Shown piece by piece: positions 4,716 to 52,807 of a stretch of 64,000 bases of DNA. Source of the DNA: Eledone cirrhosa (taxonomy: Eukaryota); contig OZ024746.1 of the NCBI GenBank assembly GCA_964016885.1, positions 86,366,001-86,430,000 on the forward strand, written 5' to 3'. Position 1 is the first letter of the stretch. Every line of letters starts with the position of its first letter. The notes beneath the pieces are model-generated. The model did no database searches, was not told the DNA's origin, and saw nothing but the letters and a program-made list of their open reading frames with translations. The translations under genes and the position numbers were made by a program.

Positions 4716-5174
4716 TATATAACCGCCTTAGCTAAGCTTAGTATTACCACGATAAATTCCACCGCGAAGTTGAGGAATTTTCCGATTTAAAGAATTCAAA
4801 ATAAAGATACCAATCAAATCTGTCAATTGGGATGAATCGGATGCACCCATTGTAATGTCAAAGAAAATATTTCGTAAACATATATATTTTGATGCTAGAT
4901 TTTTTTCTTCTTATTGTCTTCTTTGTTTTCTGCGCTCATTTGTAAACAAACTATTTACATATATTACGCACACATATTACATTAAATAAAAACAAACTTA
5001 AACACTAAATAGTTCCTCTAAATTCATAACTCATCCACTCTTCTACTTCTTTTCACAGTATATCCTTAATAACATTAATATTTTTATTTTAATAATACAT
5101 ATTAACAATTTCTTTTCCTCGCACATATTATTAAACCTTCAATATACAAACCTTAATTTAATATTATTCTTAAC

Positions 5175-25458: not shown

Positions 25459-25706
25459 AGTAATAATAATAATATTTATACTTATATATGGTTTATATAT
25501 AATTATAAATATTTAGGGTAGTACTAAGCACTAGCCAATTACCGGTAAGAGAAAAGGCTCAATGTAAATTATCAAATGTATTATCCTTATACCGTGTTTT
25601 CTGTAGCATAACATCTTTTTGTAACTCCTGATTTTCTATATGATGTCAATGACACTGTCAATAGTTCTGAAGACTAGGATTTTAATTACCTGTTTAAACA
25701 TCTCTA

Positions 25707-25753
25707 TGCTCCGATGATTCCAGACATTCGTCTGGAAGAAACAATTGTCAGAA
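25707..25753 (+). ncRNA. Hammerhead motif with a U4C core change
   Basis: ct CCGATGA ttccagac-attc-gtctggaa GAAA caattg TC ag; perfect 8-bp stem II, palindromic ACAATTGT; ~45 nt tail then (TA)n. Confidence 0.7.
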
Positions 25754-25815
25754 ATTAAATGTATTAAACTATGATTTGATTGTTTTATATTTTGTATATA
25801 TATATACACACACAG

Positions 25816-25885
<70 letters not shown>

Positions 25886-25887
<2 letters not shown>

Positions 25888-26415
25888 CAAAGGAAATGTG
25901 GTAAGGAACCAGATGGACCATAACGCACCAGAGTACTCAATACTTAGGGTAGTAGAATGGGAAATAGGAAAAAGTATGACTCCGACGGCAGAGCTCAAGC
26001 CGTTTCCACGGCTATTTCTGACTAAATTAGAATTTTTAGCCTGGTGAATAAATACCCGAACTTGTCAAGGGGTACTTCCTTATATGGGAAGATTGTAGTT
26101 GTCAAGCGGATTGGTTAAAATTTGTTGTAAACACAAACAAGTCTATCATATCACTTTCAACGCTTGACCGCTCCACTCACTCCCCTATTGTTCTACAGGC
26201 AAGTTCAGCCACCCTACCTCCCACCAAATGCCATGATAGACTTATTTGTGTTTACAACAAATTCTAACCAATCCTCTTGACAACTACAATCTTCCCATAT
26301 AAGGAAGTACCCCCTTGACAAGTTCGGCTATTTATTCACCAGGCTAAAAATTCTAATTTAGTCCAGAAATAGCCGTGGAAAGGGCTTGAGCTCTGCCATC
26401 GGGGTCATACTTTTT

Positions 26416-26420
<5 letters not shown>
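25886..26420 (-). mobile_element. (TA)n-embedded foldback element, family F1 (tail 25886-25963; arms 25964-26149 / 26233-26420)
   Basis: ~186-bp inverted arms with about 9 differences; (TA)n on both sides; contains a TTGACAA..GAAA hammerhead variant. Confidence 0.8.
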
Positions 26421-26449
<29 letters not shown>

Positions 26450-26728
26450 AAGATCGGAATTAAGAGTGTTCCGCAGTTCACAGTAATAATAATAATAATA
26501 TTAGCTCAAAGAAGAATAGAGAATTTTCTTCTGAGCTCAAATGCAAATATACTACACAAAGAGAAGTGTGTTACACAGTGAGATGTGTGTAAAGAATTAT
26601 TACAAGTGATTTTTACCGTTACTGTATAGAGAACAATATCTACAGGTTTAGCAATTAAATAGAAAAAAACTAAGTCAGAATCAAATCTCTGGATTAGAGT
26701 TTTAAATTACCAACCTTATAACTATAAG

Positions 26729-26805
26729 TTTGCTGATACGAATCTCGCTTCGTTTCACCACCGACATGTGCAGTATAACAGCCCACAGGATCCTCAGTCA
26801 GCAAA
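26729..26805 (-). ncRNA. Type I hammerhead motif with a stable stem III, in a (TA)n-flanked insert (26448-26863)
   Basis: Minus strand: tttgctga CTGAGGA [degenerate stem II] GAAA cgaa-gcgaga-ttcg TA tcagcaaa. Confidence 0.7.
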
Positions 26806-26859
26806 TGTGGATACTGTTCACGACACATCTAACCTCATGGATAGATAGAAAGCTAAAAT

Positions 26860-26916
<57 letters not shown>

Positions 26917-26921
<5 letters not shown>

Positions 26922-27118
26922 AACGAGTAGGACCCCGACGGCTGAGCTCAAGCCGTTTCGACGGCTAATTCTGGACTATGTAGTCCAGAATTAGCCGTCG
27001 AAACGGCTTGAGCTCAGCCGTCGGGGTCCTACTCGTTCCTATTACCCACTCTACTACCCTAAGTATTGAGTACTTTGGTGCGTTATGGTCCACCTGGTTC
27101 CTTACCACATTTCCTTCG

Positions 27119-27120
<2 letters not shown>
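26917..27120 (+). mobile_element. (TA)n-embedded foldback element, second F1 copy (62-bp perfect arms 26917-26978 / 26981-27042, plus tail)
   Basis: Tail 27043-27120 is the reverse complement of 25886-25963 with few changes. Confidence 0.85.
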
Positions 27121-27177
<57 letters not shown>

Positions 27178-28309
27178 ATTTCACTACAATTACCAAACCA
27201 TAATTGGGAACTCGCGTTTCACCTAAAAAGGATTTCCAAGTCATATATACATTCGGCTTCCACACAATTTCTGTTGACCATATTTTTCACTTACGACGTA
27301 TTGGTCAACGCGATGCTTTGGATGATTCATCAAAGGTTCCGAATGGTTGGATAGAAAAAACACTTCTGAAGCACACAGCCATGTTTTGTCATGTTTTAAT
27401 ATATTTGGCTTTACTACTTATAGCTAACAATATTTGAAAGAAATCCTGTTGCTATGTAACTAGCAATGTGCATGCCGTTTTATAGCATTTCCTTTTCCGC
27501 TTAATGGCTATCATTTTTCATATAACACATAATTCTATTCTATTTCGTTTTCGAAATCGATTTTGATTTGTATATATGCGGTAATACGCCTAGAATGTAT
27601 CCAAGTAATTTTGTTTTCAAAAAGCAGAAATTTCTAAAAACTAAAAGAATCTGTTTCCTTCCAGTAATTATTGACAAAGTAATTGAACATCCTAACTTTA
27701 GCAGTTTCCAGAATACGAGAGAGGACAGGGAAGCAATCGATCAAAAGTACTGAATAAAAAGAGAAGCTACAAAATGTCTTGGTAGTTGGGTATGATAGAT
27801 GGGAGGAATTATAGGAGCAATATATATATATATATTTTAACGTGAAAAAAAAAATGAGCTGCGGAAATAATATATTATAAATTTATCACTGCACTGCAGC
27901 GTCTGATACACAAACAATTTATAATTATTTTGGTGTTAGATTTTATCTATCGTCAATTTTTTTCACCCTTACTTGGCCTTTTGGGTATCTTTAGTGCTAT
28001 ATAGCACACTCTATTGCAAGTATTCGAGTTAGCTCTTTGGTTTAAGGAAAACTTCCTCTGTTCCTCTTACTATATATATATTTGTCTCTAAGCCATACAA
28101 ACAAATCAAAAACCACATAGGAATAGAATCAGCGATTTCTCTTAAAGTGACTGTGATGATATACCAGTGAAATTGCTTTTTCAAGAAATCGAAAACGCAT
28201 AGCGGACTCGATTTGCAGGAAATTTAACTCTATTATATTTTCTTCGCCCGAAACAGATTTAAAAGCCAAATTTAACTACAACAGTATTTATGAATTAGGA
28301 ATTGTTTGT

Positions 28310-32889: not shown

Positions 32890-32927
<38 letters not shown>

Positions 32928-33026
32928 AAGTAATTCCATCGGAAAAGTCCAGGAAAAAAGAGTGCTCTATGTAAGCAACAGAGCTTAATTATTATTATTA
33001 TGTAATAAACAACATAAGGCAATTAT

Positions 33027-33084
33027 TCCATTTACCAGTGGTTTCTTAAAAGCAAAAGGTTTTGCTTTCAATCCTCAGAATGAA
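33027..33084 (-). ncRNA. Type I hammerhead motif (direct arm of F2)
   Basis: Exact reverse complement of 33133-33190. Confidence 0.85.
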
Positions 33085-33132
33085 AAATCCTGGTTTGTTT
33101 ATTGTCCATATTCAATAAACAAACCAGGATTT

Positions 33133-33190
33133 TTCATTCTGAGGATTGAAAGCAAAACCTTTTGCTTTTAAGAAACCACTGGTAAATGGA
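33133..33190 (+). ncRNA. Type I hammerhead motif (inverted arm of F2)
   Basis: ttcatt CTGAGGA ttgaaagcaaaa-cc-ttttgcttttaa GAAA ccactgg TA aatgga. Confidence 0.85.
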
Positions 33191-33220
33191 ATAATTGCCT
33201 TATGTTGTTTATTACATAAT

Positions 33221-33268
<48 letters not shown>

Positions 33269-33278
33269 TATATATATA

Positions 33279-33351
<73 letters not shown>

Positions 33352-33661
33352 GAGGGAGGGAGCTTCGCGTGATTGGGTGGCTGTTGCGATGGGTGTCACT
33401 GGTCATTGACCGGGGGAATGCTTTTGACGTCTTATCCGTGGGGCGCAGCACTCTTGCCTCCTTGCCCTAGGCCCAAGGCCCAATCACCCTCCCCCTCACC
33501 TCCTCTCTTCTGTGACACCAGAGCTTTTGCCATCTCCTCCCTTTCCCGTTCTTTTTCTTCTTTCTTTCTTTTTTTCTTCTATATTTCCCTTTAGATATTA
33601 TATATAGCTTTCAAATATATATATAGTATATTGTAAAAGATCTACAAACTATAAATAAATA

Positions 33662-33707
<46 letters not shown>

Positions 33708-52281: not shown

Positions 52282-52286
<5 letters not shown>

Positions 52287-52402
52287 AATAAACAAGACAA
52301 TATAATTATGGAATAATTATATTGTGTTGTTTGTTAAATAGCTCTGTAGTATACATAGATAGAGCACTCTTCTTTCCTTTACCTTTTCTATGGAAATACT
52401 TA

Positions 52403-52403
<1 letters not shown>
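52282..52403 (+). mobile_element. Short F2 copy: ~24-bp inverted arm + direct arm + tail, between (TA)n and (CA)n
   Basis: TGGAATAATT..GTTGTTT..GCTCTGT..ATAGAGCACTCTT..TGGAAATACTT matches the reverse complement of 32925-33030. Confidence 0.75.
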
Positions 52404-52558: not shown

Positions 52559-52630
<72 letters not shown>

Positions 52631-52739
52631 CAATGACCCCCCGCAGACAACTGATGAACGAAAATTTTCTCCCGTTCATGCTTTCCTCTTATTTGTAAGT
52701 ACACCTTATCCACCAACTACACAGCCCCTGTTTCTTCTT

Positions 52740-52807
<68 letters not shown>

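Follow-up and report, generated by a model that had tools for sequence, protein, structure and literature searches.

A hallmark of Penelope-like elements (PLEs) is a mirror-image, 5′-truncated copy with a one-sided tail (PMC3846280, PMC8557442). Arkhipova et al. (2013) described a 31-bp tail that is optional on one inverted pseudo-LTR (pLTR), and a pLTR plus tail that reaches into the ORF in Adineta Pen2a (PMC3846280). Tails of 30-40 bp at one end, together with (TA)n targets, were described by Craig et al. (2021) (PMC8557442). The same paper gives the Hydra clade as marked by DKT, CxCX5C, CxxC and CxH motifs, a C-terminal GIY-YIG domain and (TA)n insertion, and reports its families with canonical hammerheads and lengths below 3 kb (PMC8557442). 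One family from Octopus bimaculoides, Hydra-1_Obim (2,507 bp, inserted in (TA)n), is listed in its supplement as ‘no pLTR’.

The one-sided PLE tail is thus a known feature, for which a likely cause has been described since 2024 (PMC11167929). In vitro, the purified element PAc (Poseidon, from Anolis carolinensis) cuts both strands of AT-rich DNA and extends each of them (Frangieh et al. 2024, PMC11167929). Its reverse transcription begins at two adjacent internal RNA sites, whatever the RNA 3′ end, and the tail found in the genome is the stretch between the two start sites (PMC11167929).

We analysed a 64,000-nt window of the Eledone cirrhosa genome (contig OZ024746.1) that holds two copies of a repeat, F1, each flanked by (TA)n tracts. 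F1 is the 3′ end of a PLE: longer genomic copies extend upstream into an ORF, in a graded series of 5′ truncations that leads up to units with a reverse-transcriptase ORF. The copies are stumps of an autonomous retroelement, and we rejected the idea of a SINE-like family that has a 3′ end of its own. We consider it likely that F1 copies, which are 5′-truncated PLE 3′ ends inserted head to head in (TA)n, owe their sharp ends to two start sites of reverse transcription.

Copy 1 spans window positions 25887-26420 and, on the minus strand, reads tail-less arm, tail-bearing arm, tail and (TA)n in that order. The tail (25887-25963, minus strand, 77-78 nt) is present on one arm only, contains a predicted bulged hairpin, SL-A (about 25935-25958, minus strand), and closes in CCTTTGT/TATATA at what we call site B, where it adjoins the (TA)n microsatellite target at 25827-25886. 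The tail-bearing arm (25964-26149, minus strand) is 5′-truncated and holds the final ~186-190 nt of the PLE 3′UTR, a pLTR. The tail-less arm (26147-26420, plus strand) runs in the opposite orientation, holds the final ~274-277 nt of the same 3′UTR and closes in TTTTTCCTAT directly before (AT)n, at what we call site A; the adjoining (TA)n lies at 26418-26447. Copy 1 had been taken for a 186-nt stem with a loop, a structure ruled out by many genomic relatives that are colinear with its positions 1-274. The supposed loop thus belongs to the tail-less arm, and copy 1 is two 5′-truncated copies of ~277 and ~190 nt placed head to head.

Copy 2 (26917-27120) is the more compact of the two and again has (TA)n at either side. 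Its tail-less arm (26917-26978, minus strand, 62 nt) has its outer end at site A, against a (TA)n tract at 26864-26919, and is separated by a 2-nt centre (26979-26980) from a 62-nt tail-bearing arm (26981-27042, plus strand) that is 100% complementary to it. The 78-nt tail (27043-27120, plus strand) is unpaired, carries a predicted SL-A hairpin (27048-27071, plus strand) that starts 5 nt past site A, and closes in CCTTCGT/TATATA at site B, next to (TA)n at 27120-27173.

The earlier note had seen that the inverted arm stops at TTCCTAT beside (TA)n in both copies, with the opposite arm longer by 77-78 nt, and this we reproduced. The arm lengths it gave, ~186 and 62 nt, hold for copy 2 and not for copy 1, whose arms are ~277 and ~190 nt. 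Its view that the copies are independent proved sound: they are 87-90% alike, fall in different subfamilies and have relatives on other contigs. For copy 2, with 40 of 1,068 candidates scored, at least 40 relatives on other contigs matched over all 204 nt at 96-99% identity; the best relatives of copy 1 are 92-93% identical. A first look gave about 6,300 candidates for F1 alone. Copies 1 and 2 are not one local duplication.

To see where F1 arms end genome-wide, we gathered arms with probes independent of the arm ends and scored the 58 distinct ones in which the stretch 100-200 nt upstream of site A is present. Twenty-six ended at site A and one ended 6 nt short of it; 22 ended at site B, with 3 more ending there after an internal deletion in the tail. 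The remainder read through into the next, tandem unit (3 arms), carried a deletion into the ORF (1 arm, L037) or were truncated by the edge of the locus (2 arms), and 0 of the 58 ended at any other point. This is the histogram of inverted-arm endpoints that the earlier note had suggested as a check on its claim of a fixed boundary, and F1 ends fell at site A or site B with no scatter. The pattern is real and well beyond what chance would give.

Site A ends in TTCCTAT and site B in CCTTTGTTAT, the close of the 78-nt tail, and the flanks at nearly all ends are (TA)n. Within (TA)n, the exact position of either boundary is ambiguous by its final 3 nt (TAT), and target-site duplications are unreadable. 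Outside the 58-arm sample, internal ends were seen on five short inner arms (L028, L029, L112, L118 and L125) of two-armed insertions, so a minor second route without site specificity exists. In LINE-1 twin priming, which produces 5′ inversions, both cut strands prime on the element RNA and leave an inverted segment with a variable junction; the internal annealing position of the second primer varies, and there is no overlap between the two segments. F1 insertions share with it the inverted segment joined at a variable point and, in the reading favoured below, would share the priming on both cut strands, but the two arms of F1 are copies of one 3′ region, and each outer end falls at one of two set sites. 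A closer likeness to twin priming is seen in the five inner arms that end internally.

The two sites are about equally common among the 58 arms, yet their combination within an insertion is far from random. Where both ends of a two-armed insertion are visible, 17 of 18 structure types pair one site A with one site B: copy 1, L002-L005, L009, L010, L015, L020, L021, L031, L032, L042, L114, L121, a tandem array on contig C1 and the copy-2 family. The exception, L007, is B-B, and none of the 18 is A-A. By our own arithmetic, random pairing at about equal A and B frequencies would give about half A-B, and 17 or more of 18 with a probability of ~7e-5. The seven stumps of the copy-1 type (copy 1, L002-L005, L009 and L121) have seven different junctions, so they are separate events with common outer ends; in all, sixteen insertions with their own junctions still follow the A-B rule.

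Arm lengths have a pattern of their own. Ten arm 5′ ends (8 on tail-less and 2 on tail-bearing arms) fall 254-305 nt upstream of site A, which corresponds to the length of a pLTR (302 nt in locus L033). This clustering would fit run-off at the RNA 5′ end if copying had begun at the first pLTR-tail junction of the transcript. Separately, where both ends are in view, the tail-less arm is the longer one in 14 insertions and the shorter in 2 (L010 and L114), with the five copy-1-type stumps L001-L005 counted singly; the 14 become 10 structure types if these are taken as one. Including insertions with one end outside the locus, the count is ~18 versus 10 and is shaped by the 1.5-kb flanks, and we make no claim that the tail-less arm is always longer.

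Longer copies place the tail within the element. In L033, whose full unit is 3,096 bp long (L033:4035-7130), the order is a 302-nt pLTR that is the end of the 3′UTR, a 78-80-nt tail, TTAGCTCC, a leader of ~90 nt and then the ATG and ORF; the 3′UTR is ~900 nt long and closes in TTCCTAT. The pLTR-tail junction is the same in L045, on another contig, and contig C1 holds a tandem array of 3,531-bp units that opens with an inverted, tail-bearing arm of ~200 nt and closes tail-less at site A. The layout of L033, L045 and the C1 array thus identifies the tail as the sequence that follows the 3′UTR end in a tandem unit. Site A is 170 nt and site B 90 nt ahead of the ATG, both within the untranslated leader. 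The C1 array and three tandem or pLTR-bearing copies run past both sites into the 5′UTR and ORF of the next unit.

The layout agrees with the complex insertions of endonuclease-bearing PLEs, in that we find a head-to-head, inverted, 5′-truncated neighbour copy with a tail at one end only, partial tandems that form pLTRs, variable junctions and AT-rich or (TA)n targets. The earlier note had taken the boundary as a signature of the integration pathway, which this match to a known one-sided tail bears out. Three features differ from these known insertions: the tail is 77-80 nt in F1 and about 65 nt in F2a, a unit of a second family described below, against the published 30-40 nt; tail and ends lie in the leader, without reaching into the ORF; and a canonical hammerhead was not detected.

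The encoded protein is 694-784 aa long. In a sister family, 83% identical in protein, intact frames of ~784 aa are numerous; this family gave 32,458 first-look candidates. We modelled a 694-aa, ATG-started ORF from one natural copy, aligned with 47 database relatives, and obtained an AlphaFold2 model with a mean pLDDT of 89. The top Foldseek match of the model was the telomerase catalytic subunit (TERT; 3du5_A, E 2.7e-9), followed by DRT, retron and LINE-1 reverse transcriptases. In a VIA-align search of 48,161 chains, three TERTs led with Z-scores of 18.0, 17.5 and 16.1 (rmsd 2.7-4.7 over 260-338 aligned residues), ahead of DGR, DRT2, R2 and LINE-1 reverse transcriptases. The predicted reverse-transcriptase fold is thus telomerase-like, as PLEs require; these fold searches spanned residues about 36-459, upstream of the putative C-terminal nuclease.

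Motifs in the ORF (YRDD, DKT as SDKTGN, CxCX5C as CNCPDRSIC, VIY..YIG, CNLC and CKH) point to the Hydra clade, and its blocks match, by eye, the Hydra alignment in the supplement to PMC8557442. Shared with that clade are a single ORF, DKT in place of DKG, the CxCX5C linker, CxxC and CxH motifs near the putative nuclease core around a conserved E and N, the preference for insertion in (TA)n and a mollusc host. The C-terminal 150 aa contain VIY-x12-YIG followed by R and H and by E/N motifs, which matched the Hydra EN blocks by eye, and we read from these motifs a putative fused GIY-YIG nuclease. Clusters neighbouring the protein in the Atlas carry GIY-YIG together with RVT_1, with PF01541 in 26-50% of members. 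Searches of the ORF and its pieces against Pfam gave 0 matches, as did a sequence-profile search of the PDB with the ORF, and PHROGs gave 0 relevant matches for the ORF. The clade assignment is accordingly one made from motifs and by-eye comparison.

Two published marks of the Hydra clade, the short (<3 kb) unit and its canonical hammerhead, were not seen: compared by eye, units here are 3.1-3.5 kb and have no CUGANGA core. The corresponding DNA motif, CTGANGA, is absent from both strands of the F1 unit and of the unit of the very abundant F1b family, a result that concerns the canonical form of the hammerhead only. Rfam detected no hammerhead at E<=10 in window positions 25700-27300 or at E<=1 in L033:3600-7301, where a full unit drew no match of any kind; the whole window had 0 matches at the gathering score, and F1 copies gave only sub-threshold matches to generic hairpins. 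A hammerhead ribozyme in the pLTR is characteristic of canonical PLE clades, and Naiads are without one. A further difference lies in the pLTR and tail, which are evident here, from the Hydra-1_Obim listing.

Next to each site lies a small predicted hairpin. Sites A and B are each 3-5 nt upstream of an 8-bp stem with a 2-nt 3′ bulge: SL-A past site A (ACUC-UACU...AGUA-UU-GAGU) and SL-B past site B (GCUC-CUAY...GUAG-UA-GAGC), both present in F1 and F1b. These hairpins were chosen post hoc, once seen, and are weak: their folding energies, -3.6 to -6.5 kcal/mol, were equalled by 12-50 of 500 shuffled sequences. They are consistent with a signal that positions the enzyme.

A second, only distantly related PLE family, F2, repeats the one-sided-tail layout. 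The F2a hairpin-plus-tail unit, the 3′UTR end of this family, lies at 32926-33225 on the minus strand and consists of a tail-less arm (33113-33225), a centre (33105-33112), a tail-bearing arm (32992-33104) and a tail (32926-32991). The F2b unit, with coordinates read by eye, lies at 52283-52403 on the plus strand and is followed by (CA)n; it comprises a tail-less arm (~52283-52309), a GG centre (52310-52311), a second arm (52312-52339) and a tail from 52340 to about 52403. F2a copies are flanked by (TA)n, and the left boundary of F2a, (TTA)n-TGTAATAAAC, is common to the window copy and the 29 relatives retrieved as loci out of 40 scored. F2b stops at the homologous TTTATTACA, which upholds the claim that both F2 copies stop at a shared boundary, with F2a and F2b only about 68% alike.

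The F2a arm is the 3′UTR end of an element with a 750-aa frame in L172, which has 39% identity to the F1b ORF over 685 aa. In that 2.4-kb copy the 3′UTR stops tail-less after CCTTATGTTGCTTTATTACC, at the F2 boundary, and in L158 a decayed piece of reverse transcriptase lies between F2b-like arms. In both F2a and F2b the tail starts 1-3 nt before a GCUC...GAGC hairpin. Homology of the F2 tail to the F1 leader after site B was weak, its score being equalled by 48 of 300 shuffles for F2a and 4 of 300 for F2b, and we take it as a lead and not as evidence.

We favour an explanation in which the element RNA has two internal start sites of reverse transcription ~78 nt apart, one used for each cut strand of the target, since the pattern here is what the PAc mechanism predicts. 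By analogy with PAc, the element protein, possibly a dimer, would nick both strands of AT-rich DNA, and each 3′-OH would then prime cDNA at site A or site B. The two similar bulged hairpins, 3-5 nt downstream of the sites, may position the enzyme, and a template jump would join the two antisense cDNAs head to head. Short stumps would arise where copying begins at a pLTR-tail junction near the RNA 5′ end and runs off ~280-305 nt upstream.

The likeness to PAc extends to two fixed ends that bound the tail, to an AT-rich target, to the use of both target strands, which fits the two-armed insertions seen here, and to short, pLTR-only products from templates that span the pLTR-ORF junction. The details differ. 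PAc starts lie 111-118 nt inside the ORF at an AC-rich stem-loop and have no homology to the cut DNA, whereas both sites here precede the ORF, lie 3-5 nt upstream of bulged hairpins and have a TAT in common with the (TA)n target. Neither PAc site has a strand preference, whereas here, judged from the genome sequence alone, each insertion has one A and one B. Taken alone, the lack of a strand difference in PAc would predict random A/B pairing, unlike the A-B rule, and this counts against the analogy.

Among the rival explanations, an unlikely one is inheritance. Copies already ended at A or B would be transcribed together with their (TA)n flanks, and priming and 5′ joining anywhere in (UA)n/(TA)n would preserve the ends with no site-specific start. 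The amplified hairpin units invite this reading: the copy-2 unit (204 bp) and the F2a unit (300 bp; 40 of 1,723 candidates scored) each have at least 40 full-length copies of 90-99% identity, all in (TA)n, and three copies have a common variant in one arm only. Because whole hairpins recur in such near-identical form, the copy-2 and F2a boundaries may be inherited and not made anew. In the copy-2 family 1 variant is mirrored in both arms and 45 are confined to one arm, and in F2a the figures are 9 and 64; the units could be either copied whole or re-formed identically each time. Inheritance, however, cannot originate the boundaries; the sixteen insertions with their own junctions hold to the A-B rule, and tandem masters have non-TA sequence past both sites. 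Its part is probably confined to the hairpin families that have been amplified.

We find it improbable that the element makes two RNAs with 3′ ends at A and B, reverse transcription starting at whichever end is present with the help of UAU-(TA)n pairing. TAT does stand beside (TA)n at both boundaries (CCTAT/T at site A and GTTAT/T at site B), and long single-armed copies occur with either type of end. Against this, tandem and pLTR-bearing copies pass both sites, so that longer templates exist; the main PAc product was unchanged when the RNA 3′ end was moved (PMC11167929); and independent ends would not yield A-B in 17 of 18 types. The earlier note had offered a second RNA 3′ end as one cause of the boundary, which is not needed given the tandem and pLTR copies and the array of 3,531-bp units that read past both sites. 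Its other proposal, an internal TAT microhomology, survives in part: TAT at both sites could aid priming on (TA)n, but TAT also occurs elsewhere in the arms and cannot fix the site alone.

Very improbable, in our judgement, is trimming, in which a symmetric two-tailed product would be recognized at the tail by the endonuclease and cut back in one arm to site A. A B-B insertion, L007, does exist; a Drosophila virilis nuclease needed the tail for recognition, according to work cited in PMC11167929, and Craig et al. proposed an ‘EN-mediated resolution’ (PMC8557442). Yet single-armed tail-less copies are present (L109, L113 and L133), the multi-unit array that closes at site A needs a site-A end without a symmetric precursor, and trimming leaves the two cDNA starts of PAc in vitro unexplained. 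An origin as a fold-back DNA element or MITE, or by local duplication of a single copy, we dismiss as next to impossible. The hairpin shape of the units and their TA-rich targets would suit it, but the units have no terminal inverted repeats, the 78-nt tail being one-sided, truncation at the 5′ end is graded up to units with a reverse-transcriptase ORF, and copies 1 and 2 belong to different subfamilies with relatives on other contigs.

With two start sites as the preferred explanation, the interpretation in the earlier note is partly supported: its fixed, mechanistic boundary was right in substance and is not new, and the note had not recognised the known family behind it. Specific to this genome are the 78-nt tail, the A-B pairing in 17 of 18 types, the arms of pLTR length and the amplified hairpin units; both sites lie in the leader, and the TAT at each could pair with the (TA)n target. 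The near-obligatory A-B pairing is a useful but unproven further insight. More tentatively, and with the balance of probability against it, the pairing may be the record of a concerted reaction, in which a protein dimer would sit on the twin hairpins of one RNA and start a cDNA from either cut strand of the DNA, 78 nt apart. To our knowledge, published in vitro work on PLEs ends at first-strand initiation. If the concerted reading is true, the arm junction would record the positions of the two polymerases at the moment one jumped to the cDNA of the other. These insertions would then offer an in vivo read-out of a mechanism with two strands and two starts, which was beyond the resolution of the in vitro experiments with PAc.

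For annotation, the abundant (TA)n hairpin repeats of this genome should be entered as PLE stumps and not as new SINEs, MITEs or microRNA-like hairpins. The genome holds thousands of young, sharp-ended copies, and the A-B rule, the 78-nt tail and the hairpins adjacent to the proposed start sites could guide mutational tests of how the enzyme is positioned.

Copy 2 in the window (26917-27120), a member of the F1 family of Penelope-like retroelements (PLEs), forms a 204-bp hairpin-plus-tail unit that is a young multicopy family in its own right, with relatives at loci L077-L105. All 40 candidates scored, out of 1,068, matched the unit over its full length at 96-99% identity, and the arms of copy 2 itself are 100% complementary. 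An additional, decayed PLE fragment lies at window 4719-4862 on the minus strand, where 48 amino acids share 46% identity with residues 289-336, within the reverse-transcriptase region, of the PLE ORF (tblastn E 1.6e-8).

In the F2a hairpin-plus-tail units, which derive from a second PLE family (window 32926-33225, minus strand; loci L047-L075), the tail end ...ACTTCA is followed by variable added bases before the (TA)n flank begins: TTT, CA, TTCACACA and TTCATACA. These additions look like untemplated addition or stuttering during initiation. At the 5' end of a single-armed, tail-bearing copy (L028:716-815), the junction is complex, containing an inverted internal fragment of 80 nt and a palindrome of 17 nt, and its make-up fits template switching or snap-back at that end. 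A tandem junction near L037:2778 (G000:C4:114523633-114527208) has suffered a deletion that removed both tail and leader, fusing the 3'UTR, ~12 nt short of site A (the tail-less arm end at ...TTCCTAT), straight to the ORF of the following unit around its fourth codon.

Across the whole window, (TA)8 or longer occurs as 32 tracts totalling 1,324 bases; several of these tracts enclose short unique inserts, such as 33348-33666 and 52627-52741. At two other genomic loci, only a short (TA)5-7 separates the opposed site-A ends of two distinct copies (L021:1778-1787 and L119:1413-1424). Copies 1 and 2, both of the F1 family, also oppose their site-A ends, with 496 bp between them (window 26420-26917). 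Such facing ends may have arisen because copies inserted repeatedly into a microsatellite flanking an older copy.
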